Virus record (IMG/VR): IMGVR_UViG_3300016744_000001
Length of the DNA stretch: 64,000 bases
From: a virus
Taxonomy: Duplodnaviria > Caudoviricetes
Reading direction: 5' to 3' (one strand)
Part shown: positions 37,737 through 64,000 of the stretch, one piece after another
Layout: the number at the start of each line of letters is the position of its first letter
Position numbering within the stretch: the stretch's first letter is position 1
Notes under the pieces: model-generated
What the model saw: only the letters and a program-made list of their open reading frames with translations
Databases searched by the model: none
What the model was told of the DNA's origin: nothing
Program-made: the position numbers and the translations under genes

Positions 37737-40283
37737 CTACAACTCATTTATTTTTGTGTACAGGTTGATTTCCTGTGGAAGCTGGATGTTGTCTTTCTTC
37801 AAACAGACAACATCCTTGTACAAGAACCCAGAGTACAAGGTAGGATCATGATAGATCATCCACAACTGCGGAGCATATTGCGAATCCATGTATCCATTCA
37901 GCCATTCCAAAAGAGTTTGTTTGTGACGTGGATCAAATCCATCATCACACTCATCGAAGAACATCGGGAAATCATTCCCGTTAGCAGCGAATACCAATGC
38001 TGGGTAAAACGCAAAGTTGATTGCTGCTTGTTGTGACTTGCTCAAGCGACTGATTGGTCCGGGTTGTTTGTTATTGCACCGAGCCATGAAGTCACAGCTC
38101 ACATCGTCATGTTCTTTCAGTAACTCAAGCTGGATTGGGTACGTCCAGATCTTGTTAAGAATGAAGTTGACGTTCTCAAGGATGGCATTGATGAACTGCA
38201 ACGTGTGATGATGAGGCATACCGGATTCAGGGTTTAATCCGATCTCAAGATAGTTGTAGATCTTCTGTCGCTTCTCAATCGTTTCGATGAGAGAAGTGAT
38301 CTCCTCAGTGTACCGTGCCCGAAGAGTTTCTTGTTCTTTGAGCTGATTGGTCAGGGTGTAGATCTGGTTATCCAATTCCTGCTTCTGTTCTGTGAATGAT
38401 GGCAGCACACAAGTTTGCAAGTACTGGATATACTCATCAAGCATGACGTACTGATGATGGCTAGCTACGTTCTTGAGTAAACGTTCCCCAGCTTCATACA
38501 GCTTCTTATACCGTTCCCCAAACTGGATTTTCTCATTGATATCCTGACAAAGGGTGTGCAGCATAATCGCATCCACCTGACACTGTTGGAGTTGTGCAAG
38601 TTTCTCTTGATAGAGCTTCTTGAGTATCTCCATCGCTGGTGTCTGAACTTTCTTGAGAGCATCAATTGTTGACTGAGCTTGTTGAATCTCTTTCTCCAAT
38701 TCAACTTTTTCTCGAATAAACTGCTGTGCCTGAATGGTCATGTGACACTGATGCAACCAGTGATTCAAATCACCATTCAAGATTTTCAGTAGATCTCGTT
38801 CAGTGTACTGCCAAACAGTTCCCGATAATAACTGGAACACCTGTTCAATTGTGCTTAACTGTTGCTTCAGGATGCCGAGCATATCAAACATTTTGTTTGA
38901 GACTCGTTCAACTTTCTGAAGTTGTTTTGATTGTTGTTCAATCTCCACTTTCAGGTTCTTCGCTTTAACTTCAAGTTTTTTACGTTGCGACCCAAAGTGT
39001 ACAGCGTAATCACAGGTTTTACAATTGCTAAGGATTTCCGTCGGACCATTCAGCAATTGTTTTAGCTCTTCTTCAATCTGAAATAGCTGATCGTCGGCTA
39101 TCCGCATCCGTTCTTTGTGATGTTGCCAACGATTTTGCAATTGGTTATACTTGTAGTTGACTCGATTGCATCGATCCGTGGGATACCAAACTCGATGAAG
39201 TTGAGCGTTCTCACCAGTAAACAAATCGTACAATCGTTCTTGTACCTGCTGATGTCTTGAAACCTGTGAGTCGGGAATGGTTGGAAACTGAAAGAACTCC
39301 TTGATCTCATCGAGGCGTTTCAACTTGACGGAAATCAAGTCAATACAGTCCTTCTGCTCATTGTCTTGGACTGTGAACATTGAAGGATCATACTGCTGCA
39401 GCTCTGACTGAATCTTTTCAAATGACTCCCGTGTGTTTTTCAACTGCTCTTCAAACTGGCTACGTTGAGCAACCAACGCGGTCATCTGGTTCTCAAACTC
39501 GTCTACTTCAAATCGCATCGGAGCTGTGGCAAGAATATGTTGCACCCGCTTACGATATTTTACGGCTTTCTCAACCGTCACTTCTTCATGTTCAATCGTC
39601 AGACGTTCATCTTGATATTCCTTGATTCGACTATTGAGCAGAAAGATTTCATTCCCAAGATCCAGCTGCTGCTGACTTAAGATCGTGGACTTTTCCATCA
39701 TGTCAGCGATGATCTCTTTAGAGAGTAATTTCTCTTCAACTGTCTGCTTTCTGGTGTACAACAACTGAAGATTACTCTTAGCTGTTCGCAGTTCAGACTT
39801 TGCTTGTTTGTGCAATTGGACAATAAAGTCTGGTACGGATGGACTCATACTCAGTAGTAACTGCTTTCGATCAGCAACCGACATGTTAGTTACCTGATAC
39901 CGACAATGTGTCAGGTCGTCAATCAACTGAGTATAACCAAGGTGTTGAGCACACAAGTCAATTTGGGTGTTGGTTAACCCATTGACGTTCAACTCAGCAC
40001 CATTCTTGCAGAATGAATGTTTCCCCTGCTTCTTTTCAAAGCTTGACGTGATAACGTATTCTTCACCGTCATGCAAGATCGTTAGCTTCTTGTAACCACC
40101 GGTATGGTAATCACTCTTAGTTGCTGGAAGAGGAGTGATTTGTGCAATCAGTTTTGATTTACCTGAGCCATTTGTACCGATAACAATCTGTACCTGACTC
40201 ATTGCCTCTATCTGTATTGATCGAATGTCTCCAACGACATCCAACCATTTCAATCCTTTTATTTCAACTTTCGTAACGTACAT
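37737..40283 (-). CDS. sbcC: SbcC/Rad50-like SMC ATPase (phiKZ-type)
   Basis: Walker A GTNGSGKS, long coiled coil with central CKTC zinc hook, signature LSKSQ, Walker B FFDECD. Confidence 0.88.
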   Translation of the reverse strand: MYVTKVEIKGLKWLDVVGDIRSIQIEAMSQVQIVIGTNGSGKSKLIAQITPLPATKSDYHTGGYKKLTILHDGEEYVITSSFEKKQGKHSFCKNGAELNVNGLTNTQIDLCAQHLGYTQLIDDLTHCRYQVTNMSVADRKQLLLSMSPSVPDFIVQLHKQAKSELRTAKSNLQLLYTRKQTVEEKLLSKEIIADMMEKSTILSQQQLDLGNEIFLLNSRIKEYQDERLTIEHEEVTVEKAVKYRKRVQHILATAPMRFEVDEFENQMTALVAQRSQFEEQLKNTRESFEKIQSELQQYDPSMFTVQDNEQKDCIDLISVKLKRLDEIKEFFQFPTIPDSQVSRHQQVQERLYDLFTGENAQLHRVWYPTDRCNRVNYKYNQLQNRWQHHKERMRIADDQLFQIEEELKQLLNGPTEILSNCKTCDYAVHFGSQRKKLEVKAKNLKVEIEQQSKQLQKVERVSNKMFDMLGILKQQLSTIEQVFQLLSGTVWQYTERDLLKILNGDLNHWLHQCHMTIQAQQFIREKVELEKEIQQAQSTIDALKKVQTPAMEILKKLYQEKLAQLQQCQVDAIMLHTLCQDINEKIQFGERYKKLYEAGERLLKNVASHHQYVMLDEYIQYLQTCVLPSFTEQKQELDNQIYTLTNQLKEQETLRARYTEEITSLIETIEKRQKIYNYLEIGLNPESGMPHHHTLQFINAILENVNFILNKIWTYPIQLELLKEHDDVSCDFMARCNNKQPGPISRLSKSQQAAINFAFYPALVFAANGNDFPMFFDECDDGFDPRHKQTLLEWLNGYMDSQYAPQLWMIYHDPTLYSGFLYKDVVCLKKDNIQLPQEINLYTKINEL

Positions 40284-40403
40284 GCGAACCTTCTTAGTTA
40301 AGTTGGAAGCATATCACAATACCTTAACGTAGGAAATCAGGGAACTAACCATTTTTAGTGACTATCATTTGGCTAGGTTTACCTAAACATTAAGAGGATC
40401 ACT

Positions 40404-40964
40404 ATGTCACTCATGAATAATGATGCAATGTTCCCGTACGTTGACATTGATGCCATCTACCTGAAGTGTGGCAACAATCAACGGCTAAAAGAAGTTTATC
40501 GGATGCTGCTTAACCAGCTCTACAGTGAATGTGATCAAGTGGTCTGTCCGATCACTGGTGATGATGCAACTAATCGGCACTTCACCTACAGCACATTCGC
40601 AGTGAATGCTGAATCATACCAAGCGTCCTATCATGACGAAGTGTACTCTTGGCATGTTGGTCCCACCGGGATCACAGTTCCGTATGGTAATGCCTTGTCA
40701 TTTCACATCTGCAGTTCTGACTGGCTGGCAAAGGTTTCCCGCTCATTGCGGTGTATCTGGCATGCTGCTCGATTGATCCCCAACGACGACAAATACCATC
40801 GGACATTCGTCAACATCAGTATCCCGTGGTTGGCGTTGGACAAACCAATCGACACCGTCACAGACCAAGAGTTGATTGACTACGCTGAAGTAGTCTTAGC
40901 ATCAATCTCTGGCCAAGTGTGGGTAAAGAACAAGCAGGTCATCAGTCTGCCAGCTTACCAATGA
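40404..40964 (+). CDS. Hypothetical protein at the head of the fibre/radical-SAM operon
   Basis: GAGGA RBS; 186 aa. Confidence 0.7.
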   Translation: MSLMNNDAMFPYVDIDAIYLKCGNNQRLKEVYRMLLNQLYSECDQVVCPITGDDATNRHFTYSTFAVNAESYQASYHDEVYSWHVGPTGITVPYGNALSFHICSSDWLAKVSRSLRCIWHAARLIPNDDKYHRTFVNISIPWLALDKPIDTVTDQELIDYAEVVLASISGQVWVKNKQVISLPAYQ

Positions 40965-40971
40965 GGCAATC

Positions 40972-41508
40972 ATGAACGAACTTATCATCAAAATCACAAT
41001 TGTGTCAAAACCACTGGCTTACTGGCAAACAAATGATCCAGTGATCCCATTTGGTCAAGCGGCGCATGTTGTTGAAAACGCCATGAGTCAGGTTCGCATT
41101 GGTGATGGGGTCGCCAAATGGAGTGCCCTTCCTGATAAGAACATTGACATGAGCGTAGCTCCTCACCACGGCACACATGACACAAGTGGCACTGATCCAA
41201 TCAGTATCCACCTGAGTCAAGTCAGTGACTTCACTGCACAACATGGCTCAATCGCAGCTTCAACTACTGTGGTTGGGCACATCCAAGTTGCCAGTGATGC
41301 TGACATCGCTACTGGTACAGAAACCGGCAAAGCTGTCAACCCAAAACAGTTGAAGACAGCTTTGGACGCTCTTTCATTGGTTGCCATCCAAGCCACTGCA
41401 CCGGAAAAGAAAACTGTGTTGTGGGTAAATACTACCGACTCAACGATCAACTACTGGAACGGGTCGGCTTGGGTAACCACAGTTGGGCGTTTTGCTGACG
41501 TGACCTAA
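40972..41508 (+). CDS. Short tail-fibre-like protein
   Basis: N-terminal W..NDPVI..G......VRIGDGVAKWSALP (Mtd/hyaluronidase-N-like); HHGTH...G.D; ASTTVVGHIQVA...G....AVNPKQLK fibre repeat; YWNGSAW. Confidence 0.75.
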   Translation: MNELIIKITIVSKPLAYWQTNDPVIPFGQAAHVVENAMSQVRIGDGVAKWSALPDKNIDMSVAPHHGTHDTSGTDPISIHLSQVSDFTAQHGSIAASTTVVGHIQVASDADIATGTETGKAVNPKQLKTALDALSLVAIQATAPEKKTVLWVNTTDSTINYWNGSAWVTTVGRFADVT

Positions 41509-41519
41509 AGGAGTTTGAA

Positions 41520-41789
41520 ATGGCCGTTAATGAAACGATTACTCAAACTACCTTTACTGGGTTCAGTCGATTCCCTAAGTTTGTGCACATTCAAGAACTG
41601 AAAACTGCGCTTACTCAACTGGATGCGTACAGTAAGAATGTTGTTAACTGCAACTGTGCCCCAAGTAACTGTTGCCAGGCAAACTGTTCTTATACCTGTC
41701 AATCCTGTCAAAGTTGTCAATGGTGTCAAACTTGTCAAAGTCAATGCCAAAATTGTTGGAACTGCAATTGTGGTGATGACGGATCTTAG
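41520..41789 (+). CDS. Cys-rich protein A (candidate radical SAM substrate)
   Basis: AAGGAG RBS; 14 Cys in the C-terminal half, (CQx)n repeats, NCNC at both ends of the core. Confidence 0.85.
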   Translation: MAVNETITQTTFTGFSRFPKFVHIQELKTALTQLDAYSKNVVNCNCAPSNCCQANCSYTCQSCQSCQWCQTCQSQCQNCWNCNCGDDGS

Positions 41790-41797
41790 GAGGTAGC

Positions 41798-42112
41798 ATG
41801 TCTTTACCAACCAGACAAGAAATCATTGACATGACTACTCAATTTGAGCAAATCCGTGACAGTGTAACCTACAAATCTGGTCAAACAAAACCAGTAATCG
41901 ACAAGCATACTCACACCGTAACTTTCCCGGAGAGGGTGACACTTACTTCGCTGCAAGCTGGGGTGAAACAACTTGAGAGTTATTACTCTCAAAACTGCAA
42001 TTGTTTAACCAACCCACAATGTTGCCAGACTTGTCAAATCTGTCAGGTGTGTCAAAGCTGTCAAAGTTGTGAAAGTGGTTGGTGTGAAAATAACTGTTTG
42101 CAGTGCAACTGA
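41798..42112 (+). CDS. Cys-rich protein B (paralogue of A)
   Basis: AGGAGG RBS; 12 Cys; QLESYYSQNCNC..CCQTCQICQVCQSCQSC. Confidence 0.85.
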   Translation: MSLPTRQEIIDMTTQFEQIRDSVTYKSGQTKPVIDKHTHTVTFPERVTLTSLQAGVKQLESYYSQNCNCLTNPQCCQTCQICQVCQSCQSCESGWCENNCLQCN

Positions 42113-42124
42113 TAGGAGACCATC

Positions 42125-42964
42125 ATGCTCAAGATATACTCCCTGGCTGTTGATCAGACAAGAAAGTTCTCAATTGATCTGGTGGACAACCAACTTTCTG
42201 TAAAAGTCATTGATGACTCAACCAACGGGATCGTCAATGAGTGCTCTCCCACCTTGATCGAGTCTTACCACTCTTATGGACTGTTTAGTGGCAACTTCGT
42301 TGAACGAGTGCCCAGCACAATTTTCAAAGAGTTGGATCAGGTGATCCATGCCGGATCACTCAAACTCGTGAACTATCTCCGCCTTGGTTATGGCCCACGG
42401 GAATCGTTCATGGGGATTGCTGACTTTTGGTCACACAACCCACTTGGTCAAGTTGACACTGGTTTGTACACCGACCAAGAAAAGGACATTGTGATCACTG
42501 TCTTTGGTGGTTGGAATCCGGATAGTATCGTCAATAGCTCGATCCCATACGAAGTCCGCACCCCACTGCCGGCAGACACATTTCACTCGCATAAATCCAA
42601 TGCCCGTTGGACGCTTTGGGATCGATATGCGGTCGGAATCAATGGCTTGGAATACTGGGCAGACCAAAACGGTATTCGAAAAGACACCAATGCAGAAACA
42701 ATTGCAATTCCAACAAAGGAATGTTTGGAGTTTAATCTCCAGAAGTATACCTCTGATTGGTCAACAAAGCTTGAACGCCCAGTCGACTGTAATGAACTAA
42801 CGCTTGAAACCACTTGTGGTCTTTTGCGCACAACCAGAGTCCCGTTGGTTGAAGGCAAAGCAAAATTCCACCTGTACCCGTTTGGTCATCTTGGTGAATT
42901 CAAAATCAAGGTTGGCTGGCGATGGTACCCTGTTTGGGATGAATACAAGTTCACGTTAATTTAA
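42125..42964 (+). CDS. Accessory protein of cassette 1 (C-terminal beta domain shared with 48481..49482)
   Basis: LETTCGLLRTTRVPLVEGKAKF...G...IKVGWRW. Confidence 0.75.
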   Translation: MLKIYSLAVDQTRKFSIDLVDNQLSVKVIDDSTNGIVNECSPTLIESYHSYGLFSGNFVERVPSTIFKELDQVIHAGSLKLVNYLRLGYGPRESFMGIADFWSHNPLGQVDTGLYTDQEKDIVITVFGGWNPDSIVNSSIPYEVRTPLPADTFHSHKSNARWTLWDRYAVGINGLEYWADQNGIRKDTNAETIAIPTKECLEFNLQKYTSDWSTKLERPVDCNELTLETTCGLLRTTRVPLVEGKAKFHLYPFGHLGEFKIKVGWRWYPVWDEYKFTLI

Positions 42965-43018
42965 ATATAGTAGTGAGAAGGTGTTTGCCTTCTCACTACT
43001 GCAAATAAGGATTAAACC

Positions 43019-44098
43019 ATGAACAATCTGCTTTCTATCCCTGCTGTCAGAACTATCTTTCTGATGCTTGGACCTAAATGTAATCTGTCTTGCAAGTATT
43101 GCTTGCAGTCTTTAGATACGACTCCGGTTAAGCTCAACCCCGACATTTTTCCATTCATTGAAAAGATTGCTGAAGCAAACCCAGAAACACCAGTACACCT
43201 CCAATTTTTTGGAGGTGAGCCTTTGCTTCACTGGGATTCGGTAATCAAGGAAACACTAGATCATTTCGAAGGTGTTGAGAACATCCAGTTTTCCATGATC
43301 ACCAACGGTGTTGGTCTTACTCAAGAAATCGTGGATACCTGCAACCAGCGAAATGTTAGCATCTGTGTGTCGTGGGATGGGCCAAACACACAAGAACTTC
43401 GTGGGTTTGATGTTCTGAATTCTGAAAAACACCGAATATTGTTGTTGCAAGTTATTCGGCTTAGTTTGTCAGCTGTCGTCACATCCGAGTCATATCCAGT
43501 AGAGATCATCGATGCTGCGATGCCATTCGTTCTTGATTACCATGCTGCTACTGGAAATCACTGCTCGATCAACTTTGACACCATCTTTCAATCGAAAGAC
43601 CCCGAGCTTGAAAAGCTTGATCTCTCAAGATTGTACAACGATAATCAGATCTTGTGTGCCGAACTGAAAAAACGGTTGCTGAACCAAGAACACAACCCGT
43701 ACTACGCTCATCACGCTGATCAGATCTTTGGGATGTTGACCAAGTCAATTAAAAACGACACCGACTTCTTGTACAGTACCTGTGCATGTGAAAATGGGTA
43801 TGCTGTGCTCAACCTTGGAATTGACGGTACACTGTATCAGTGTCACAATGTGGCCACCGTACTCGGGAATATTTACTCCGGTTACCTTCCGTATATGAAG
43901 GCGGTGATCCGCAATGATCCTACGAAAACTAGGGTGGTTGAGACTTGTCAGCATTGCCCAGTTGTTGCAATGTGCAAAGGGGGATGCATGCTTGTTCCAG
44001 CTGACCAAATCAACGGTAATTACTGTGGAATCAAACGAGCGATGTTTCTTCCGTTCATTGAGCTTCTATTGTCCTTTGACAAGGATACTCCAAAATGA
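43019..44098 (+). CDS. Radical SAM/SPASM maturase 1a
   Basis: CNLSCKYC, FFGGEPLL, ITNG, SWDG; SPASM C...GTLYQCH...CQHCPVVAMCKGGC...YC. Confidence 0.92.
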   Translation: MNNLLSIPAVRTIFLMLGPKCNLSCKYCLQSLDTTPVKLNPDIFPFIEKIAEANPETPVHLQFFGGEPLLHWDSVIKETLDHFEGVENIQFSMITNGVGLTQEIVDTCNQRNVSICVSWDGPNTQELRGFDVLNSEKHRILLLQVIRLSLSAVVTSESYPVEIIDAAMPFVLDYHAATGNHCSINFDTIFQSKDPELEKLDLSRLYNDNQILCAELKKRLLNQEHNPYYAHHADQIFGMLTKSIKNDTDFLYSTCACENGYAVLNLGIDGTLYQCHNVATVLGNIYSGYLPYMKAVIRNDPTKTRVVETCQHCPVVAMCKGGCMLVPADQINGNYCGIKRAMFLPFIELLLSFDKDTPK

Positions 44099-45057
44099 AA
44101 TCACTCACCATCCATTTAGGTAGCCAGTGCAACGCCGCTTGTGAGTACTGTCACTGTGAAAAAAATGGTCATCTTGAACCCGATGCTGAAGCATTAGCCG
44201 TCAGGATTAATGAACTTCCAGAACATTCCAGAGTGAAGTTTCTTGGTGGTGAACCATTGGTCTACTGGGACACAATCGAATACCTCCAAAAGAAGTTTCG
44301 TTTGAAGTATCAGTGGTCAGTTGGTACAAATGGTATCCTTCTTGACAAGTATCTTGACAAGTTGAAACGATTTCAAACTCAGATTTGTATCTCTTATGAC
44401 GGCAGCAGCTCTCTGCGAAAAATGCCGGTCAACTGGGATATCCTTTACCAGCTATCTGAATTGTGGTTGAGTTATACGGTGATGAACACCAATTGTGATG
44501 TGCTCAAAGAGATGACATTCATCGATGAGATCTCTAAAGAATACGTCACTCCTATCTGGTGCATTCCTCACTTCATGCATGCCTTGGTCCAAGAGCATCA
44601 ACCCTTTGTCATTACCGATCAGCAGCTTGATCAACTGATCGCTGATTGTCAGCTGGCAATTGACTACTTTGTTGATGCCGCCCCAACAAGTGTTCCAATG
44701 TCCAAGTACTTTGGAATCTATTTGTGGATTGCATCAAAAGTTCACCAGAACAATTTTTCCTTTGGTGAGACGACTTGCTTTAACAACAATCTGATCAAGA
44801 TCAACAATCAAGGGCAGTTGGTTTCTTGTTTGTACGATCAAAGCTTACACCTTTCTGACATCAATTGGTTTGATGTTCAAAAAGCTGAACTCCGCGAGCA
44901 TCAACCAAAATGTCAAACCTGTTTGGTGTATCGCTACTGTGGAGCAGCTTGTTACAAAAGCAAGTTCTCGGATCATGAATGTCAATTTTACAAAACCATG
45001 ATTCCATGGTTCGTGAGGAAGTATGGCCATAGACCACTTATTCGTCTTTGCCGATAG
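44095..45057 (+). CDS. Radical SAM/SPASM maturase 1b
   Basis: CNAACEYC, FLGGEPL, TNG, SYDG; CQTCLVYRYCGAAC...EC; ATGA overlap with 1a. Confidence 0.92.
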   Translation: MKSLTIHLGSQCNAACEYCHCEKNGHLEPDAEALAVRINELPEHSRVKFLGGEPLVYWDTIEYLQKKFRLKYQWSVGTNGILLDKYLDKLKRFQTQICISYDGSSSLRKMPVNWDILYQLSELWLSYTVMNTNCDVLKEMTFIDEISKEYVTPIWCIPHFMHALVQEHQPFVITDQQLDQLIADCQLAIDYFVDAAPTSVPMSKYFGIYLWIASKVHQNNFSFGETTCFNNNLIKINNQGQLVSCLYDQSLHLSDINWFDVQKAELREHQPKCQTCLVYRYCGAACYKSKFSDHECQFYKTMIPWFVRKYGHRPLIRLCR

Positions 45058-45685
45058 CATCCAACTCCCGTGTAAACTGATCGTTGAGCGGGCCAATGGT
45101 GTCTATCAGTTCAAGTTGGACTTCTTGGATCAGGTAGTGGAGGTATCTCCAGAACTTCTAGAACAAAACTCTACTGTTGGTATCATGTACAACGCTGAGC
45201 TTCAAAAGCTTTACCCGTTGTACAACCTTCGAGAAGTCGCCAGCTTCATCGGTTGCAACTCAAAGCAACTGTGCCCTCAACTTGGGCAGAATTGCTTTGC
45301 TCAGATTGACAAGAAGTCTGATGAAGTCACGTTCATTAAGATCTTCTTGCCTCAGAGCCAACTGACGTGGCAGTCTGCCACGATTGACCGGAACACTCTG
45401 ACGATGGTTCAACTTGATCAGCTCACAGCAATTGATCAAGAATTCCAGCATGTCTGGGAAATCATTGATGTTTCGGTGATCAGTGATCGTCTTCTCGTCT
45501 CTATTGATTTCCATCGGAAGTATCCTGAACCAGTATTCCTTTTCTACGGTGGATTGTCACAAGAGTTGCATGAAGGGGTGCAACAGCTCTCGTTCCCATT
45601 CTTGAAAGGGAACAACCTTCACATCCGGTTTGACCGTACCAGGTTTTCGACTTGGCAGTATTCTGTGGACAGCAATATTAAATGA
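45023..45685 (+). CDS. Accessory protein of cassette 1
   Basis: GAGGA RBS, overlaps the end of radical SAM 1b. Confidence 0.7.
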   Translation: MAIDHLFVFADSIQLPCKLIVERANGVYQFKLDFLDQVVEVSPELLEQNSTVGIMYNAELQKLYPLYNLREVASFIGCNSKQLCPQLGQNCFAQIDKKSDEVTFIKIFLPQSQLTWQSATIDRNTLTMVQLDQLTAIDQEFQHVWEIIDVSVISDRLLVSIDFHRKYPEPVFLFYGGLSQELHEGVQQLSFPFLKGNNLHIRFDRTRFSTWQYSVDSNIK

Positions 45686-45768
45686 ACAGCACCTTTCCTA
45701 CTCTCCTTTCTTAAGGAGAGTATGGATGGTAGTATGCATTACAGATATCTTTCTTAAGGAGAAAGTCC

Positions 45769-46530
45769 ATGGCTGATATGACTGCAACAATCCCTGTCAA
45801 ACCAACAGTGTTTCCGGAACCATTTGCCAATTCTGGCGATACCACACAGCTCCCTCAGACAACCACCACTCCCGGCAAAGCATCGTTCGATGCTGGTTTC
45901 CCTGAGGAATGCTCCAAACCTCTGGCGGATGGTGGTCTCCCTCCCAGTCGTATTGACTTCAACTCAATTTTCAAATTGATCACGGAGTGGTTGCATTACT
46001 TCCAGTCTGGTGGCCAGGTCACCTACAATCAGGACCTGAACTATATCACTCCTGCTCTGGTGTTCTACAACGGCACAGGATACGAATGCACTGCCGACAA
46101 TGGTCCTGCAGTTGCTGGCATCGGTATCAAAATTCCTGGTGCTGTGGGCAGTGAAACTTTCTGGAAGCCTGCTTCAGGTGAGCTGAACATCAACCACTTT
46201 GGCAACAATGCGAACTCATACCTTTTGACAGGTTACTACTATATTGAGGACGCATACGCCACGCTGAACTTCCCAGTCATCGGTTCTGGTGGGTTCTTGA
46301 CCGTGTCACGTCGTGACAACAATCTGGATCAGGCATTCGTACTGAGGACAGACGCAACCAAACTGTATCGCCGCAATTCGACAGACGGTGGTACCACTTG
46401 GTCAACTTGGACAAAGGTCGTCCACACGACTGACATTCGTGGCGACGCCTACTGCCAGCGTTTCATCACCATGTCTGATCCAGACCATGCGATCGGTAAT
46501 GACAACGACCTGTGGATTGTGTACCGGTAA
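45769..46530 (+). CDS. Tail fibre protein (prophage-myovirus-type N-terminus, knob-like C-terminus)
   Basis: PEPFANSGD, GKASFDAGFP..CSKPLADGGLPP...DFN N-terminus; TGYY....NFP....G.L.V....Q.......Y.R.....WSTW. Confidence 0.8.
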   Translation: MADMTATIPVKPTVFPEPFANSGDTTQLPQTTTTPGKASFDAGFPEECSKPLADGGLPPSRIDFNSIFKLITEWLHYFQSGGQVTYNQDLNYITPALVFYNGTGYECTADNGPAVAGIGIKIPGAVGSETFWKPASGELNINHFGNNANSYLLTGYYYIEDAYATLNFPVIGSGGFLTVSRRDNNLDQAFVLRTDATKLYRRNSTDGGTTWSTWTKVVHTTDIRGDAYCQRFITMSDPDHAIGNDNDLWIVYR

Positions 46531-46553
46531 TTTTTACCCCCAAGGAAATCATC

Positions 46554-47612
46554 ATGACAGACTGCGTACTTTACTGGAATGGTTCTGGTGGCAAAGTTGT
46601 CTCACAGGGTATCCTGTTTGAGATCAGCACCAAACCTGACCTGGGTTTCGAGTACGAAACCCTGAGCTACGAACCATCCATGAACTTTGCCCACTACACG
46701 TTGGCAACCAAGGATGAAAACAACCTCAGCACCATCCTGAAAGTTGATCTTTCAGAAGCTGAACTCGTCAAGGTTCAGAATTTCTGCAATGTCTTCATTG
46801 ATACTGCAGACTACGAAGTGGCCGCCTACAACACCGATCGAGTGTTCGTTGGTGTGATCATGAAGTCCTTGGCGATTGAAAAGAACCTGAAGTACTCAAT
46901 CACCGAGCGGCCGCCCATGCCGATGGCGAAGTTCAACGAAACCACCGGCAAATGGGAACCCATCTTTGTGGCCTTCAAAGAAGATGGTTTTCCGCTGTTC
47001 AACGTCACCAAACTGTCAGACGACATGGTGATGTTCTTCACTGAAACCGAATGGAAGGCACTGCCCACTCAGCCTTCTTACCGGTACTCACTGGATTTTG
47101 CGACATTGACTTGGATGGACAAACGTGATCTTGTCCGTGTCAAGAATGATGCCCTCATGACACTGCGGGTGTACTACGAACATCAGGACATTCGTGCGAA
47201 TGCTGGTTTCCGCACACCCAAGGAAATGATCCAGTGGAACATCCAGTACAATGAAGCCAAGGCGTTTACCGCCGATTCCAAGGTCAGCACTCCTTTCCTT
47301 GACGGCTTCCTGTCCAAGAATCCTCAGAGCACCAAAGAAGAACTGTGCGCTAAGATTCTTGAAGACTACACTGACGAAGCCCTGTTTGTGGCCGGCGCCG
47401 ATCATGGTGAGATGTACAACTACGTCTACCGGATCAAATCTGCCACCACCAATGTGGCAGTTGACGCCATCGTTGACGAGGTCAATGCCAAACTGCAGAA
47501 GTACAAAGTGGTCAACTACAACCAGGCGTATCCTTCTGCTCCGGCCAAAGAAGGCGAAGAAACTCTTGTAGTTGTCGGAGGTACCATCAACCATGGCGTC
47601 GGCAGTCTATAA
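46554..47612 (+). CDS. Tail-fibre assembly/chaperone-like protein
   Basis: P.P....FNETTGKW and EMIQWNIQYNEAKAF..D....TPFL......KEELCAKIL motifs typical of fibre-associated chaperones. Confidence 0.6.
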   Translation: MTDCVLYWNGSGGKVVSQGILFEISTKPDLGFEYETLSYEPSMNFAHYTLATKDENNLSTILKVDLSEAELVKVQNFCNVFIDTADYEVAAYNTDRVFVGVIMKSLAIEKNLKYSITERPPMPMAKFNETTGKWEPIFVAFKEDGFPLFNVTKLSDDMVMFFTETEWKALPTQPSYRYSLDFATLTWMDKRDLVRVKNDALMTLRVYYEHQDIRANAGFRTPKEMIQWNIQYNEAKAFTADSKVSTPFLDGFLSKNPQSTKEELCAKILEDYTDEALFVAGADHGEMYNYVYRIKSATTNVAVDAIVDEVNAKLQKYKVVNYNQAYPSAPAKEGEETLVVVGGTINHGVGSL

Positions 47613-47940
47613 AGTACAGGTGCGGGCCCAAGGTGCTTATCGTGGGTGTGTGCCTTTTGTGAAGGTTGCTGGTAAATACATCAATCCCAAAGCTATTTAC
47701 GTGAAAGTGAATGGTCTTTGGCGCGCAGCTTATGACAACTTTTACTGGTCGTACTACTGGATGACTGGTAACTGGTCTGGTTGTGCATGCGTCGGCAACT
47801 GCAGTAGCCGAGCAGTTTGGTGCAATTACTATCCGGAAATGCTCACCATGCCTGACAGCTATTGCTCGACGTCTGGTGACAAGCCTGCCACTGTTCAGTG
47901 GTGCAATTGTAATTGTGCGTGTGCCTGCTGTTGTGACTGA
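47593..47940 (+). CDS. Cys-rich protein C with TSP1-like segment and CNCNCACACCCD tail
   Basis: GGAGG RBS before ATG 47593; YVKVNGLWR fibre-tip-like motif; 13 Cys. Confidence 0.8.
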   Translation: MASAVYKVQVRAQGAYRGCVPFVKVAGKYINPKAIYVKVNGLWRAAYDNFYWSYYWMTGNWSGCACVGNCSSRAVWCNYYPEMLTMPDSYCSTSGDKPATVQWCNCNCACACCCD

Positions 47941-47989
47941 GGTTGCGACTAATTAGCAATTCAATTGCCAGTAAATAACAGACCTTTAT

Positions 47990-48023
47990 ACAGAGTACCC
48001 ACCTTTTAAGGTGGGTACTCTGT
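47990..48023 (+). terminator. Intergenic hairpin
   Basis: ACAGAGTACCCACCTT / AAGGTGGGTACTCTGT 16-bp stem. Confidence 0.65.
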
Positions 48024-48086
48024 CAATGATTAATCTTGTTATCTATAAAGATGGTACCAATCTAAAACAATTTCATGGAGTGCAAC

Positions 48087-48488
48087 ATGAGTAACGAAGA
48101 TACCAAATCTGAGGCAGAACGTTTTTCTCTTCCCAGTCAGTTTGTGATGGAAGAGGATACTGAACAGTATCGTCTCAAAACCGATAAAGTGTACACCTAT
48201 CATCGTGATGGTGAACTGGTGATCCAAATCGACTTCAGTGACTTTGCCATCAACAAAGACGACATCGACCGCCTGGGTGAAGAAGCCGTAATCAACCAAA
48301 TCCAGCAGGATGCGCTGGTGTTGGCGATGAAGCTGACTGGTGGGCTGAAACCAGGAGATGTTGAAAAACTGAACAATGAAGAAGTACGGGTTCTTACCGA
48401 AACTGAGATCGAAGACGCCACTGCGTTCATTGCCAGTCATCAGCAGTTCATGAGCGACCCCCAACAAACGGAGACCCCCAATGGGTAA
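48087..48488 (+). CDS. Acidic accessory protein of cassette 2
   Basis: GGAG RBS; D/E-rich; overlaps the start of 48481. Confidence 0.7.
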   Translation: MSNEDTKSEAERFSLPSQFVMEEDTEQYRLKTDKVYTYHRDGELVIQIDFSDFAINKDDIDRLGEEAVINQIQQDALVLAMKLTGGLKPGDVEKLNNEEVRVLTETEIEDATAFIASHQQFMSDPQQTETPNG

Positions 48489-49482
48489 ACCAACCTTGTT
48501 TATCATCCGGAAAGAGATGGACATCCTTCGTCCGTTTGTTATTCGAGTTACCCGTGAGGAAGACCTTCTTCAGGTAGAGTACCTTTACCGCACCATGGTC
48601 AAAGGTGAGCAGAAGGACTTCTTGGTTCTCGGGTATCGGCTTACTCGTGAGTTCCTTGAGAAGCGCAATGACTGGAAAGACAACACCCAATTTGGCATGC
48701 ATCTCAAGGACTATGACATCTCTTACATGCACAGCTGTGTCAGGATCATCCAACAGTTCGTTGACTCTGGATTGTCGTATGCCGATGTCTGCGCTGCAGT
48801 CAGTGCTCACATGCCCAGATTCAACACAATCAACCGCAACGGATACCTGATCAACATCAGTGCCGCCAGCTACATCGGTAAAGTTTCTTCCGTGGAAGCT
48901 CATGTGTTGATCCCTGCTTACCGGGTGATCAACTGGGTACAGAAACTGAAGAGCACCAAGTTCACGGAATGCTGTGTCAACTTGGCAGCTGACCCTGCTT
49001 GCACCGTAGAAGTGATCACTGGTGATCGGACGCAGGACATCTGCAACAGCAGTGAGATCTACAAAGATCTCATCCACAAGGATGAAGCGATCAAACAGCA
49101 GGTTTGGCGTCCCAAACTCAAACTCACCCAGCAGCCAAAACGGTATCCGATCGTCAACAACTTCCCCAGTCGCACTCACTCACTGTTGCGCACGGATCTG
49201 GTTGTCGAAGATTTCACCGGCGTGGTCTTTCCTGATGAATCAGTCACATTTGACGTGCAATTGGTTCGGGAGTGGTACGGTGATGAAATCCACTCCCCGG
49301 CTGAAATCTATCTGGAATGCGTCAATGGTTACTTGCCGAAGACACGTATCCGGTTGGATGAAAACGGTCATGGTACTTTCCGGTTCATTTCCCTTGGTCT
49401 TGAGAAGGGTGACATCATGAAGGTCAAAGCTGGTTTCAGGTTCATGACAAACTCTGCTGAAGCGGATATCGCAATCATCTAA
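48481..49482 (+). CDS. Accessory protein of cassette 2 (C-terminal domain shared with 42125..42964)
   Basis: LECVNGYLPKTRIRLDENGHGTF...G...MKVKAGFRF. Confidence 0.75.
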   Translation: MGKPTLFIIRKEMDILRPFVIRVTREEDLLQVEYLYRTMVKGEQKDFLVLGYRLTREFLEKRNDWKDNTQFGMHLKDYDISYMHSCVRIIQQFVDSGLSYADVCAAVSAHMPRFNTINRNGYLINISAASYIGKVSSVEAHVLIPAYRVINWVQKLKSTKFTECCVNLAADPACTVEVITGDRTQDICNSSEIYKDLIHKDEAIKQQVWRPKLKLTQQPKRYPIVNNFPSRTHSLLRTDLVVEDFTGVVFPDESVTFDVQLVREWYGDEIHSPAEIYLECVNGYLPKTRIRLDENGHGTFRFISLGLEKGDIMKVKAGFRFMTNSAEADIAII

Positions 49483-49493
49483 CAGTCATTCTC

Positions 49494-49523
49494 ACAGAGT
49501 CAGGGAGTACTCCCTGACTCTGT
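49494..49523. terminator. Perfect 30-bp palindrome
   Basis: ACAGAGTCAGGGAGTACTCCCTGACTCTGT. Confidence 0.6.
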
Positions 49524-49580
49524 ATATCTACTGCATTATTTATGCATCGGTTACACCAAAAATAAACCTGAGGAACAGAT

Positions 49581-50819
49581 ATGTTAAGTCTAGTCTTCAA
49601 TGACAAATCGCTTGAGAAATTCAAGATCGACTTCAATCCGTACACCATGAAGTTTGGTCAGGATGTCCAAGATATCAAACCGCTGATGACTGTGCAAACA
49701 AAGATCCACAGCAAGTCACCAAAAGTGCTCAAAATCATGCTTGGTGACGCTTGCAACTTTCGCTGTAAGTATTGCCGTCAAGATCATCATGGTCGGAAAG
49801 ATTCTTTCAATCCGGCACGATTAGCAGCATTCATGCAGATGCTCACGAACAACCTGTCACTGCATCAGCTTGAACGTGTGGAGTACTGGGGCGGTGAACC
49901 CCTCTTGTATTGGGATGAAATCCGGTACTTGATGGACAGAATCGAGACACACGTAAAACGGCCCGTAACGCACCATATAACGACGAATGGCAGTTTGCTG
50001 ACCAATGACATCGTTTCAGACATAAAGTCGCTTAAATACCTCTTTAAGCTCTCTCACGATGGTCCTGGGCAAAGTCTTCGCACGGCAGATCCATTGAAGC
50101 TGCATGAAAGCAAGATCATGGATCTGTACACCCACATGAAGACGGCTGAAGGAAGCAAGTTTCACATCAACTCGGTGCTGACCAAATTGTGTCCGTCACC
50201 TTTCACGATTGTGGATTTCTTCCGAAAGAGGTTTGACAACGATGTCTCGATCATGAAGATCGAACCAGTCATCCCGTACAATGATGATGCGTTGTCTTAC
50301 GCGATCAATCCAGCAGACATGCCGAAGTTCTCATTCCAGATCGCCAACGACATCATCCGTGGGGATATCGTCAGAAGTGTTGTGGAATACCAACAGCTGT
50401 GGGATGCTTTCGTTTTGATGGAAGCTGCCCCTGACTACATCTACAACATGACTGAAGCCAAATGTCATGGGTCACAGTTGATGACTATCTGCACTGATCT
50501 CGATGGTAACCTCACCCCTTGTCAGGTGTATGACAACTACACTCCTGATCAAGTCATCGGCCATCTGACCAAGCTGGATGACATCAAGGAAGAACTTCCT
50601 TATGCTCCGATCAATCGCGCCGGTCGTTGCACCAACTGCCCTGTGATCTCACTGTGCCGTGGGGTATGCCCACACATTGCTCCTGGTCAGCATGCTGACA
50701 CCAACTGTCTGATGCGGTACAACACGTACCTGGGTATCCTTACTGCGTTCCTGTTTTTCAAGACTCAGAAATTCTTGATTCAAGTTAACGGGGACTATTA
50801 CCACAACCAACAAAGGTAG
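49581..50819 (+). CDS. Radical SAM/SPASM maturase 2a
   Basis: CNFRCKYC, YWGGEPLLYW, TTNGSL, LSHDGPGQ; CTNCPVISLCRGVC...C. Confidence 0.92.
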   Translation: MLSLVFNDKSLEKFKIDFNPYTMKFGQDVQDIKPLMTVQTKIHSKSPKVLKIMLGDACNFRCKYCRQDHHGRKDSFNPARLAAFMQMLTNNLSLHQLERVEYWGGEPLLYWDEIRYLMDRIETHVKRPVTHHITTNGSLLTNDIVSDIKSLKYLFKLSHDGPGQSLRTADPLKLHESKIMDLYTHMKTAEGSKFHINSVLTKLCPSPFTIVDFFRKRFDNDVSIMKIEPVIPYNDDALSYAINPADMPKFSFQIANDIIRGDIVRSVVEYQQLWDAFVLMEAAPDYIYNMTEAKCHGSQLMTICTDLDGNLTPCQVYDNYTPDQVIGHLTKLDDIKEELPYAPINRAGRCTNCPVISLCRGVCPHIAPGQHADTNCLMRYNTYLGILTAFLFFKTQKFLIQVNGDYYHNQQR

Positions 50820-50824
50820 TTCAC

Positions 50825-52156
50825 ATGCAACTGATTACCTTAAAGAATGGTACTCAGCTTAAGTTCGATCCAGTCAGCGTTAAGTTCTTCCAGATGGACG
50901 GTACTCCGATCACGGTCAGGAATGATATCAATGCTGATCAAGATTGTTCCAAAGTGAGTAACCAACTGAACATGCACATGCATGCGAACACAAGATTCGA
51001 CAACCCGAAAAACTTGCGTATCGTTCTTGGGCACGCCTGCAACTTCAAGTGCAAATACTGCAGTCAGAGTCACTCACCTCTTGACCTGCCCCCGGCCAAA
51101 CAAGTTAGCAAGTTCATGATGGACTTGTTCAAAACGACTAATCTTTCCCAGTTGAAGGTTATCCAATTCTGGGGTGGTGAACCACTGCTGTACTGGCCAA
51201 CCATCTGCTTCTTTATGGATGCATTCCGGGAGATCAATCCCAACATTGGGTTCTCTATCGTGACCAATGGTAGTTTGATCACCAAGCGCATGGGCGATGT
51301 CATTCTGAACGACGACCAGTTTGGTTTCATCCTTTCTCATGACGGTCCGGGTCAACATCTCCGTGGGATTGATCCATTGGCTCTGGGTTCTCGTACCAGA
51401 GACATCCTGTTACAGTTGGCAAAGGAAAAGGTGCCCAACCAACACCGGAAGTACTTGAATGAAGGAAGGAACTTTGCAGTCAATCCGGTGATCACCTCAG
51501 CTGTGGGTTCACTCACATCCTTGGTAGAATGGTACGACAAAGCCTTTGAAGGTTGCGAAGTACCAATCGCTGAATCAATTCCTGTGATCCCAATCCAAGA
51601 CGACACGGCACAATACGCGCTGCATCATGACGATCTACCCAAGTATACAGCGATGATCTACCACGATCTACTGAAGCTTGGGTTGCATCGTTTTGACAAC
51701 TACAAGATGCTGTATGATCTCTTCCTTCAGAAGTGGTCACTTCCGCAATTCTTGGTGAACCCCAAAAAAGCTTTGTGCTTCACCACCGATCCATACATGC
51801 TGACATTGGACCTGAATGGTAACATCTTACCATGCCAGACTTTTGCAGCTTCGGATCATCTTGGTAATGGGGAACCAGCATCTTACAGTAACCTGCTGGA
51901 TTTTGGTGACAAGACTGATCCCACCACAACCGGACCAGACATCAAAATGCCAACAGTTCATGGTTATGGTAGCCGAGGTAGTAAGTGTAGTAACTGCCCA
52001 GTAGTTTCTTTCTGCATGGGTGGTTGTCCTTACCTTGTTGGTGCACAACACGACATTGACTGCCGTGTCAAGTACCATCATTTCCTTGGACTACTGTTTA
52101 CCTTTGTCACAATGGCCTTTGGTGAAAAGGTCCTCAAAATCGAAACCCTCGATTGA
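50825..52156 (+). CDS. Radical SAM/SPASM maturase 2b
   Basis: CNFKCKYC, FWGGEPLLYW, VTNGSL, LSHDGPGQ; CSNCPVVSFCMGGC...C. Confidence 0.92.
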   Translation: MQLITLKNGTQLKFDPVSVKFFQMDGTPITVRNDINADQDCSKVSNQLNMHMHANTRFDNPKNLRIVLGHACNFKCKYCSQSHSPLDLPPAKQVSKFMMDLFKTTNLSQLKVIQFWGGEPLLYWPTICFFMDAFREINPNIGFSIVTNGSLITKRMGDVILNDDQFGFILSHDGPGQHLRGIDPLALGSRTRDILLQLAKEKVPNQHRKYLNEGRNFAVNPVITSAVGSLTSLVEWYDKAFEGCEVPIAESIPVIPIQDDTAQYALHHDDLPKYTAMIYHDLLKLGLHRFDNYKMLYDLFLQKWSLPQFLVNPKKALCFTTDPYMLTLDLNGNILPCQTFAASDHLGNGEPASYSNLLDFGDKTDPTTTGPDIKMPTVHGYGSRGSKCSNCPVVSFCMGGCPYLVGAQHDIDCRVKYHHFLGLLFTFVTMAFGEKVLKIETLD

Positions 52157-61824: not shown

Positions 61825-62256
61825 ATGCTTCCTACCATCACCCCCAGCAATTTTGTCAACATTCTCATGTACCTTCCTCACAGCGACCCCGACGCTAACA
61901 CCTCGGAAAACATCCAGACGAAAGATCTTATCACCAGTGCAATCGAACGCAACCTTCGGGTGGGCCACTTCGATCCGGCGGTTGACGGTGGTTTGTATCT
62001 GACCCAGGTGCGTCTGACCGACAGCACCAGCGCCTTCGTAGCAGTCAAGGATGAAGCTGGTAATCTGATCCTGCGGACGATCGTTCGCCGGTCAGGTGAA
62101 ACCTGCCAGCTTGGTGAAATCTGCAGACCGTTCGTCGACATCAACACTCCGGAAAACGTTGTGTTTGCTGATCCCAGCATCTGGCCGGCAACAAGTCAGC
62201 TGAATCCGATCTTTGTGGATGCTGACGTTCTGGAAAAACTGAACAAAGTTTTGTAA
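61825..62256 (+). CDS. Hypothetical protein
   Basis: AAGGAG RBS; 143 aa. Confidence 0.7.
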   Translation: MLPTITPSNFVNILMYLPHSDPDANTSENIQTKDLITSAIERNLRVGHFDPAVDGGLYLTQVRLTDSTSAFVAVKDEAGNLILRTIVRRSGETCQLGEICRPFVDINTPENVVFADPSIWPATSQLNPIFVDADVLEKLNKVL

Positions 62257-62263
62257 CTACCAC

Positions 62264-62300
62264 TCCACTGACCCTCTCCTTTTGGGAGAGGGTCAGTGGA
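62264..62300. terminator. Hairpin between convergent genes
   Basis: TCCACTGACCCTCTCC / GGAGAGGGTCAGTGGA. Confidence 0.7.
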
Positions 62301-62334
62301 TTCATCTTGCGATGATTTTTTTTTCAGTCAGTTG

Positions 62335-64000
62335 TTACTGACCGATTTTCCCGATGCCGGTCCAGTACTTGTCCCGGTTCAGGATGTTGATGATGCAACC
62401 CATACCGTTGAGGGCGATCGGGTATTCACGGGTGTTCTGCATGGACCGGCGGTAGGTGGCGTTGGCGCCATCGGTCGGGGTCCAGTTCACACTGTACTGA
62501 CCACCGTCGTAGTTGACCGCAAAGTTCAGGTCGCTCTGCGGCTGGTTCGGACGGTAGGGGATCAGGATCATGGTGTCTTCCATGTAGTGGAAGGCGGTGG
62601 TCACGAATTCGATGATCGTGCCGTTGGGCAGGACTGTCTTGAATTCGGTGGGCTTGCCAGGAACCTTGACTTCGAATACCTGTTCGCCGTTCTTGCCGGA
62701 GGGCATCTGGTTTTCATGGATGGAAGCCAGCGACCAGAGGCAGTCGATGATCGGCGTGGTGGTGATGCACTTGTACACCGGGGCAGAATCTTCCAGCTGC
62801 TGCAGGAGCAGTGAACGGTAATGCATTTCGGTGGTGATGGTGTTCATGCAAGCGCGCATGTAGGTCCAGAGGTCGGACAGCACGTCTGAGGTGCGGAAGT
62901 TCACGACGTTCTGGAAGTCGATGGTCTTGATCATGACCGTGGGGTTGACGCGGCAGCCGGACACGAAGGACTTGGCAACAGTCATGTTGTCGTAGTTCTC
63001 GATGTAGCGGGAGTCGGACATTTCGTTCTTCACGCGGTCGGCAGTGGCCTTCAGCGTCTTCATGATCAGCTGAAGGTTACGATGGTCGATACCGATCGTC
63101 TGCACTTCAGCAGCCACGTCCAGAGCGTGCTCGGGCAGAGTCTGGTTGTGGGCATGGTCGACCACGATTGTGCGGCCGTCAGGCAGCGAGTAGGTCAGTA
63201 CGTCGGTCATCGAACGCACGGCCATGTTGGTCTTGCGGAAGTTTTCTTCCGAGTAGAAGGCGTCGATTTCCCAGCCGATGACTTCGCAGGTGATGTCCTT
63301 CACCAGGTCCTTCAGGTCCTGAGAAGCATCGGTGCCAGCGATGGAAACCACAGGGCGGAATTCCACGTTACCAGCGCCATACACGCGAGCAGACTGCAGG
63401 TTGGCACGGCCGTTGAAGTTCAGTGAGCCGATGATGTATTCGAGCGAACGGTTCTGGCTGGCGAAGATGACAGTGCGTTTGTCTTCAGCCGTCATCAGGT
63501 CCTTGTCGAACGCGATCTTGGTGAGGAACATGACGCCACGGTCAGCCACGTTGTCCTGGGTGTTGTTCAGGTGAGTGAACGTACCCATGTTGGCATACGG
63601 GGTCAGATTGACCATGAACTGTTCGGTGATACCACCGGCGTTCGGGTCGCCCTTGGTAACCTTCAGGTGCACAGCGCGGAGCTGGATGCGGGCGGAGAGC
63701 AGGTCGGTGTAGTTCAGTTGGTCATAGCCGACTTTGCCTTCGACCATGGACAGGTCCCACAGGGGGATTTCCACATTGGGCTTCAGGATGTTGTTGGCGA
63801 CCAAGTACTTGTGTTCAGTGTCAGCGGCAAGCAGCGGCACCACGGGGATCAGTTCCATGTCCACAGGTTCGGGGTGACGCAGAAGCGTGATCATCTGGTT
63901 GCGGTGAGCCCAGCTCTGGCGTTCAGCCGTGGACTTGTTCTGGGATTTGGCCAGATCGTAGAATTCGTCGTTCGGACGCACGAACTGCACCACACCGGTG
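62335..64000 (-). CDS. Probable major capsid protein, phiKZ gp120-like (5' end beyond window)
   Basis: >552 aa, open to the edge, strongest codon bias in the window; IGWEIDAFYSEENFR and DLNF...REYPI..GCIINI segments recall phiKZ-family capsid proteins. Confidence 0.7.
   Translation of the reverse strand, partial: TGVVQFVRPNDEFYDLAKSQNKSTAERQSWAHRNQMITLLRHPEPVDMELIPVVPLLAADTEHKYLVANNILKPNVEIPLWDLSMVEGKVGYDQLNYTDLLSARIQLRAVHLKVTKGDPNAGGITEQFMVNLTPYANMGTFTHLNNTQDNVADRGVMFLTKIAFDKDLMTAEDKRTVIFASQNRSLEYIIGSLNFNGRANLQSARVYGAGNVEFRPVVSIAGTDASQDLKDLVKDITCEVIGWEIDAFYSEENFRKTNMAVRSMTDVLTYSLPDGRTIVVDHAHNQTLPEHALDVAAEVQTIGIDHRNLQLIMKTLKATADRVKNEMSDSRYIENYDNMTVAKSFVSGCRVNPTVMIKTIDFQNVVNFRTSDVLSDLWTYMRACMNTITTEMHYRSLLLQQLEDSAPVYKCITTTPIIDCLWSLASIHENQMPSGKNGEQVFEVKVPGKPTEFKTVLPNGTIIEFVTTAFHYMEDTMILIPYRPNQPQSDLNFAVNYDGGQYSVNWTPTDGANATYRRSMQNTREYPIALNGMGCIINILNRDKYWTGIGKIGQ

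Follow-up and report, generated by a model that had tools for sequence, protein, structure and literature searches.

A phage tail-fibre cassette pairing two Cys/Gln-repeat proteins with two radical SAM/SPASM enzymes, and its possible role in fibre cross-linking

The window, that is the whole stretch of 64,000 nucleotides of phage DNA analysed here, contains a six-gene tail-fibre cassette in which a pair of Cys/Gln-repeat proteins (ORF A and ORF B) is encoded beside two radical SAM (rSAM) enzymes with SPASM motifs. We consider it fairly probable that the two proteins are substrates of the SPASM enzymes and are retained as a cross-linked rod or tip of the fibre. Judged from sequence comparison, a part of the host-recognition fibre is most likely cross-linked enzymatically by the phage. 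The cassette and its upstream neighbour comprise the following features.

40972–41508, + strand: short fibre-like protein, 178 aa; tail collar fibre phrog_910, E 2.5e-5
41520–41789, + strand: Cys/Gln-repeat protein type A (ORF A), 89 aa, 14 Cys; profile E 1.9e-21
41694–41739, no strand: 9/18-bp TGTCAA-based tandem repeat (Tandem Repeats Finder, TRF), encoding the CQx run of ORF A
41798–42112, + strand: Cys/Gln-repeat protein type B (ORF B), 104 aa, 12 Cys; profile E 3.9e-23
42031–42076, no strand: 9/18-bp tandem repeat (TRF), encoding the CQx run of ORF B
42125–42964, + strand: accessory protein X, 279 aa; predicted tandem beta-sandwich
43019–44098, + strand: rSAM1, 359 aa; PF04055, 34.7 bits (cut-off 29.5)
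44095–45057, + strand: rSAM2, 320 aa; PF04055, 39.1 bits; 4-nt overlap with rSAM1
45023–45685, + strand: accessory protein Y, 220 aa; conserved 3' of rSAM2

The paired Cys/Gln-repeat proteins and their family

ORF A starts with a MAVN..T.F N-terminus, which is followed by a helix, N-V-x-NCNC, CCQ, the CQx run and an NCNCGDDGS end, and its first Cys is residue 44. ORF B has two predicted helices (residues 6–22 and 49–66), then S-x-NCNC, CCQ and the CQx run, with the first Cys at residue 67. The preliminary description had proposed this arrangement, a Cys-free N-terminal part ending in a helix and then NCNC, CCQ and CQx runs, with 14 and 12 Cys in two tandem paralogues; both the arrangement and the Cys counts were confirmed in the ORFs. 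The helix, NCNC and CCQ line up in a BLASTP comparison of ORF A with ORF B (38% identity across 63 residues; E 0.026 when only these two are compared), and in both proteins the helix carries hydrophobic residues at 3-4-3-4 intervals. ORF A and ORF B are real paralogues.

Shine-Dalgarno-like sequences (AAGGAG, GGAGG) precede ORF A and ORF B, and the intergenic gaps to their neighbours are 8 and 12 nt. Promoter and terminator scanning of 40200–46000 gave sites no more numerous than in shuffled sequence. The possibility of chance ORFs in a DNA repeat was rejected, because the frames are conserved as proteins at 30–55% identity in DNA of very different G+C. The reverse-strand ORFs in the same DNA (41505–41810 and 41644–41832) are without support. 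In the AF2 monomer prediction of ORF B only the two helices are formed, and the Cys run is unstructured (pLDDT below 50). A three-copy prediction of ORF B from a 36-row alignment scored 0.00, which is evidence neither for nor against a trimer.

To collect the family, a profile built from eleven sequences was run on 1.84 billion representative proteins; it matched 122 clusters at E ≤ 1e-3 and 33 at E ≤ 1e-10. A word-based search from ORF B found seven relatives of 112–150 aa. The common plan begins with a variable stretch and an amphipathic helix, h-x-x-L-x-x-A-h-x-x-L-E; then come N-C-x-C, usually C-C-Q, and a run of CQ dyads, often with an N/D-C ladder and an acidic or ...SH end. The terminal NCNCDC ladder is present in many members, and ...SH, DSH and DDGG are common C-terminal ends. 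Type A proteins, among them ORF A, have a short N-terminus (MAVNG..) and N-V-x-NC. In type B proteins, among them ORF B, the N-terminus is longer and contains an additional helix, and the motif is F-S-x-NC. ORF A is 51% identical to the type A protein of L002, a contig from Logan.

The layout of leader and core, earlier recognised in the two ORFs, is kept across the 122 clusters of relatives. The N-terminal "leader" has 45–70 residues and two conserved helices, and it is as conserved as the core. Homologues lacking the helix, or metallothionein-like homologues unlinked to rSAM genes, had been named beforehand as what would speak against this layout; instead, the helix is kept and the genes are linked to rSAM genes. 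The likeness of the helix to the HIxELRxAI segments of phage tail proteins, also suggested earlier, is visible in relatives (VHITELRTAI) but is captured by no PHROG or Pfam family.

Neither ORF A nor ORF B matched a family in Pfam or NCBIfam, including metallothionein and ferredoxin families, or a fibre family in PHROG, and a PHROG scan of 50 family members found no shared family. In INPHARED (50,697 GenBank phage records), there was no DNA match to the region and no near relative of the window, and tblastn with ORF A and with an IMG/VR type B protein gave no match. Only distant rSAM matches of at most 26% identity were obtained there, and the cassette was not found in the GenBank phages of that collection. 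A locus search with single-protein queries gave no related loci. In bacterial genomes, the pattern CQ[ST]CQxCQxC gave almost only chance matches among the matches listed; these included six weak family-profile hits, one of which adjoins an rSAM gene. The phages that carry the family range from small gut-type siphoviruses to phiKZ-like jumbo phages. The window is part of a jumbo phage; ORF B is encoded on a 273-kb record. By profile comparison, ORF A and ORF B are members of a new, large, phage-restricted Cys/Gln-repeat family.

The CQx runs have a clear counterpart in the DNA. The 9-bp tandem repeat noted earlier under the core was found again by TRF, which gave 5.1 copies for period 9 and 2.3 copies for period 18 (87% matches) at 41694–41739, where five TGTCAA follow each other in 9-nt steps. 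In the 593 nt from the start of ORF A to the end of ORF B, TGTCAA occurs 8 times versus 0.16 expected from base composition. Codon use in ORF A and ORF B is skewed to TGT for Cys (19/26 versus 67/148 in the other window genes, p 0.011) and to CAA for Gln (21/25 versus 123/278, p 0.0001).

Across the family (about 830 spacings), CQ dyads are spaced by 3 in 419 cases, by 5 in 241 cases and by 4 in only 4 cases. The period-3 (C-Q-x)n repeat of the preliminary description is therefore the commonest form but an incomplete one, since spacing 5 is also frequent. Because the spacing is 3 or 5 and hardly ever 4, a structural or enzymatic constraint is suggested rather than mere low complexity. The repeat had also been expected to expand or contract. 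This is seen over larger distances, with 0–23 CQ dyads per protein in the whole family, but close relatives, defined by at least 85% identity in the N-terminal part, mostly have equal numbers of dyads (10 versus 10, 9 versus 9) and differ in the terminal N/D-C ladder. Some relatives have NQ in place of every second CQ, that is, in half of the dyads.

The cassette and its radical SAM/SPASM enzymes

Loci in IMG/VR were collected with a degenerate DNA pattern for CQ[ST]CQxCQxC, and the resulting 115 stretches were scored with purpose-built profiles. The 51 family loci include the window and three Logan contigs (L001–L003). In the fetched DNA, rSAM genes were present in 49 of these 51 loci, from IMG/VR or Logan; the two others are a 1.5-kb fragment and a weak hit. 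The link to rSAM genes that had been presumed for the two ORFs is thus near-obligate. In each of the 32 loci in which both types could be assigned, the type A gene comes first. The usual order of the cassette is rSAM1, A, B, beta-sandwich X, rSAM2 and Y, and all six are present in the window, arranged as A, B, X, rSAM1, rSAM2 and Y.

Both enzymes have the features of the radical SAM superfamily with SPASM, namely PF04055 and both Cys motifs. In rSAM1, CxxxCxxC is at residues 21–28 and CX2CX5CX3C is C-terminal; rSAM2 likewise has CxxxCxxC and a C-terminal CX2CX5CX3C. The rSAM motif starts within the first 30 residues in both, and its position at residue 21 of rSAM1 leaves no room for an N-terminal RRE. 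rSAM1 shares 36–39% identity with the cassette rSAM of L001 and of L097 (36% with the upstream enzyme in L097); between rSAM2 and the downstream rSAM in L097, identity is 30%. The window enzymes are orthologous to the cassette enzymes of other loci.

The best NCBIfam matches of the enzymes are thioether-forming maturases, such as PapB, QhpD, YhhB and the SCIFF maturase. All scores are far below the cut-offs. For the PapB family (NF047865), rSAM1 reached 95.9 bits and rSAM2 46.4 bits versus a cut-off of 340; for QhpD, the second-best match, 73.9 bits versus 453 was obtained, for the SCIFF maturase (TIGR03974) 54.9 versus 425, and for the CrpC-type maturase (TIGR04463) 35.3 versus 525. The enzymes therefore fall in no named family, and the type of reaction proposed below is an extrapolation.

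Protein X was hit by its profile in 32 loci, always between B and rSAM2, and Y in 26 loci, always after rSAM2; for both, the remaining loci are cut by the locus ends. The predicted structure of X is all-beta (AF2, pLDDT 71). Its Foldseek matches are Ig-like tandems and uncharacterised phage proteins, including a 295-aa protein of Ralstonia phage RP12, and no family was found for it in Pfam and NCBIfam. For Y, there was no family in Pfam, PHROG and NCBIfam, and the Atlas gave no usable look-alike. No protease, transporter/exporter or RRE domain was detected in the six conserved cassette genes, and no immunity gene is part of the conserved cassette.

Some loci have additional genes. In the G+C-rich Logan contigs L001 and L002, the order is a fibre-like C-terminus, A, a 270-aa gene, B, four rSAM genes, a 75-aa gene and a ThiF gene. 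In these enlarged cassettes (L001:2019-6653 and L002:1991-6676), the ThiF-family gene scored 116 bits and the 75-aa protein is conserved, and by profile the 270-aa gene that separates A from B shows no relation to X. In L097, one of the gut-type siphovirus loci, a stand-alone Hint-like ORF of 131 aa (8397-8792, weak Hint_2 hit) lies between type B and X. It overlaps the stop codon of B by 4 nt and is without the usual N-terminal Cys, and it may be a remnant of a B-Hint fusion.

The window has a second, parallel cassette at 45769–52156. It starts with a tail fibre N-terminus (45769–46530), followed by a 366-aa protein. Further products are a 122-aa protein ending in CNCNCACACCCD (47572–47940), which is not of the CQ family by profile, an acidic 137-aa protein, and a 333-aa protein whose C-terminus is weakly X-like (E 0.004, pairwise). 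Two larger rSAM/SPASM genes lie at 49581–50819 and 50825–52156. A fifth radical-SAM-like ORF (15803–16774, 323 aa), far from both cassettes, was recognised by a weak rSAM profile hit (1.9e-8) and a tblastn match from an rSAM of L001. At the end of the window, 62001–64000 has a G+C of 0.56 versus about 0.45–0.49 elsewhere and a positive GC skew, and this stretch is covered by a 552-aa ORF on the minus strand (62335–63993).

An 848-aa SbcC/SMC-like ATPase is encoded just upstream of the fibre cassette (37737–40283, minus strand). In Ralstonia phage RP12 (L005), the order is an SbcC-ATPase, structural proteins, a YomR-like fibre, a small protein, an X-like protein and rSAM genes. This local order is common to RP12 and the window, and it suggests kinship between the window phage and the phiKZ-like Ripduovirus group. 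ORF074 and ORF075 of RP12 (L005:1379-1756 and 2037-2924) belong to an analogous cassette, in which the small protein is followed by the X-fold protein (Foldseek E 8e-6) and then by three or four rSAM genes. The small protein has no Cys; it has an I-x-x-LR-x-x-I helix and is rich in His, Tyr and Trp (HTHNYYDYYW, HTHYSPDGSY). The RP12 cassette could be a cyclophane-type counterpart of the Cys system.

Tail-fibre context and domain fusions

The cassette is flanked by fibre-like genes on both sides. The upstream gene product (40972–41508) is the short fibre-like protein listed above; its last ~45 residues are also conserved in distant relatives, in the gene just before the Cys-rich pair. Consistently, the upstream genes of L001 and L002 match 41362–41499 by tblastn at 43–53% identity. 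On the other flank, 45769–46530 matches several tail-fibre PHROGs. In L097, the order is tape measure, Dit, a 477-aa tail fibre and the cassette. Since this siphovirus-type locus and the window share the cassette, it serves small siphovirus-type phages as well as a jumbo phage.

The CQ run is also found fused to domains of fibre proteins, and the longer fused forms of the family make up at least 24 clusters of 276–422 aa. In the family protein P0022, Peptidase_S74 directly follows the CQ run (53.6 bits, cut-off 22). Peptidase_S74, the "chaperone of endosialidase", drives the folding of fibre trimers and then cuts itself off. Its position directly after the CQ run of P0022 implies that this run belongs to a trimeric fibre. 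Laminin_G_3 (LamG) domains are found at the N-terminus of P0098 and P0121. According to precomputed annotation, Hint (PF05203) is present in six longer clusters, and in those scanned it follows the Cys run, just below the Pfam cut-off. In gp028 of Achromobacter phage JWF (L004:3664-5115), which is annotated as a tail fibre, a NCNCDCNCNCSC run is followed by Hint with 47.5 bits, above the cut-off. This gene is located two genes before an rSAM distantly related to rSAM1 of the window. The NCNCDCNCNCSC run of gp028 sits exactly at the start of Hint, and after self-cleavage the mature protein would end in the Cys ladder.

Altogether, location in tail-fibre modules and fusion to fibre domains were observed for the family, and no PHROG fibre family was found for ORF A and ORF B themselves. 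The S74, Hint and LamG fusions favour a retained structural part of the fibre over a secreted peptide. The idea that the N-terminal part is retained instead of discarded, already raised in the preliminary description, fits the tail-fibre location, these fusions and the lack of a protease, exporter or RRE.

Known systems, proposed chemistry and alternative explanations

The freyrasin system PapB/PapA resembles the cassette in that its SPASM enzyme, the best NCBIfam match of rSAM1, is without a long N-terminal RRE, and in that its substrate has a repeated short Cys motif; the C-X3-D of PapA would equal C-X3-Q in CQxCQ. Unlike in PapA, the acceptor would be Gln and not Asp. ORF A and ORF B repeat CQx or CQxxx with no Asp/Glu acceptor, and so they lack the C-X3-D/E of a PapA-type precursor. 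The family differs further by its 90–150 aa, its conserved helical N-terminal domain, its A/B pairs and its fibre modules with X and Y.

The closest functional precedent for a protein substrate is CrpC/CrpA. The SPASM enzyme CrpC of Methanococcus voltae installs ranthionine links on the 29-kDa Cys-rich protein CrpA, which shares its N-terminal region with the paralogue CrpB, has C-X-X-Q/D motifs and is suspected of metal binding (2026; PMC13692751). A protein instead of a peptide as substrate, two paralogues with a common N-terminal region and C-X-X-Q/D repeats are the points in common with the present system. In contrast, CrpC is a TIGR04463 enzyme with RRE, whereas the window enzymes are without RRE, and CrpA belongs to a cellular system, not a viral one, and has repeats of 17 residues.

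Other known systems are more different. QhpD makes intraprotein Cys thioethers, as a SPASM enzyme, in the retained small subunit QhpC (gamma subunit of quinohemoprotein amine dehydrogenase), but substrate, context and repeat architecture all differ from the ORF A/B system. The SCIFF precursor has ~45 aa with six Cys, compared with 89–104 aa and 12–14 Cys in ORF A and ORF B. The CXXX-repeat target and maturase (TIGR04114/TIGR04115) have Cys at every fourth residue, a spacing nearly absent here, and the CQ dyad, the A/B pairing and protein Y are specific to the present family; ORF A and ORF B gave no hit to TIGR04114 or the related Pfam family. By the tests made here, the family is distinct from the CXXX-repeat type and from alternating N/C-ladder proteins, even though a ladder of the latter sort closes many of its members. 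Among S74 fibres and spikes, such as K1F endosialidase and T5 pb1, the same C-terminal chaperone is found that P0022 carries after its CQ run, but ORF A and ORF B of the window have no S74 domain. S74 fibres of this kind are not known to carry Cys repeats or to have an rSAM partner.

In the mechanism we propose, the SPASM enzymes would act on the C-terminal CQx/CQxxx run. The likely products would be thioether bonds, of the ranthionine or sactionine type, between Cys and a neighbouring residue. The most obvious acceptor candidate is the invariant Gln of the next dyad, which would give a C-X3-Q ring, like C-X3-D of PapA, and in five-residue units a C-X5-Q ring instead. This Cys-to-Gln linkage is proposed by analogy with CrpC/CrpA and PapA. 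The N-terminal part with its short heptad-like helix would be kept as an element for oligomerisation or docking. The outcome would be a rod or tip that is hardened chemically and carried by the fibre whose gene lies just upstream, not a cleaved and exported peptide. The fixed pairs would be accounted for if one enzyme served each of the two substrates, or each of two bond types. A more specific version, in which the CQ run forms the shaft or tip of the virion fibre with a Cys-to-Gln thioether ladder, possibly between trimer chains, and A and B form consecutive or mixed segments, is put forward only tentatively. In the NQ variants, Gln exceeds Cys, and a structural Gln ladder therefore fits at least as well as an acceptor role. 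Ralstonia phage RP31 represents the only related phage group with virion mass spectrometry, in which 32 gel bands were identified. The Cys-free analogous cassette proteins were absent from these 32 bands, which is shallow and weak counter-evidence.

Alternatively, the runs could form a rod that binds metal or iron-sulfur clusters, with CxxC and CxxxxC as chelates along the oligomer axis and thiols that the rSAM enzymes spare. We regard this as unlikely, although several observations would suit it. Spacings 3 and 5 correspond to the classical chelating motifs CxxC and CxxxxC, spacing 4 is avoided, and many proteins end in ...SH, DSH or DDGG. A trimer, as implied by the Peptidase_S74 fusion, would bring equivalent Cys opposite one another, and CrpA too is suspected of metal binding. 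Iron is bound by His-x-His motifs at the tip of T4 gp37. However, a metal rod leaves the near-obligate SPASM pair unexplained, the closest relatives of these enzymes consume Cys thiols, and there is no reason in it for an invariant Gln after each Cys. With no metallothionein or ferredoxin family match and rSAM linkage in 49 of 51 loci, ORF A and ORF B do not look like metallothioneins. That the pair is a classical phage-encoded RiPP, whose leaders are removed and whose modified cores are released as antimicrobial or signalling peptides, appears distinctly improbable. The leader-plus-core layout, two paralogous precursors with SPASM maturases of the ranthipeptide/sactipeptide type, and a low-complexity core that is repetitive like PapA are all expected of such a system. 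The conserved cassette, however, lacks what a canonical RiPP cluster has (an RRE in an enzyme or partner, a leader protease and an exporter) as well as an immunity gene, and its place within tail-fibre modules is constant. Moreover, the domain is fused behind LamG and in front of the self-cleaving Peptidase_S74 or Hint of fibre proteins, the 45–70 residues of the "leader" with their two conserved helices are conserved as well as the core, and bacterial genomes have almost no family members among the matches listed.

That ORF A and ORF B serve as disulfide-rich structural proteins or chaperones, neighbouring the rSAM genes only as parts of a shared module while the enzymes modify the fibre or another target, is very improbable. 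Other rSAM genes do adjoin fibres with Cys ladders of their own, as in JWF gp028 and in the second cassette of the window, so the larger fibre could be the target of the enzymes. However, no Cys run is present in the fibre-like protein encoded upstream in the window and in L001/L002. Within the cassette only A and B are rich in Cys, and the co-occurrence with rSAM genes is specifically that of A and B. Retention of the pair as a cross-linked part of the fibre is our preferred reading.

Proteolysis, isopeptide chainmail and glycosylation are the post-translational chemistry known in phage particles. We found neither this cassette nor radical SAM cross-linking of a virion part or phage fibre described in any paper. 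If the tentative Cys-to-Gln ladder is real, it would be the first case of radical cross-links installed by an enzyme in a virus particle, and ranthionine chemistry would gain a new acceptor residue. The cassette offers a compact test system, with two substrates of ~100 aa, two enzymes of ~340 aa, two helpers and more than 100 natural variants. Should the cross-links be real, RiPP-type enzymology would be extended to structural proteins and Gln acceptors, and the CQ proteins would be a natural scaffold for rigid, repeat-programmable peptide rods. Such cross-links would also explain how receptor-binding structures are hardened or tuned in some phages.
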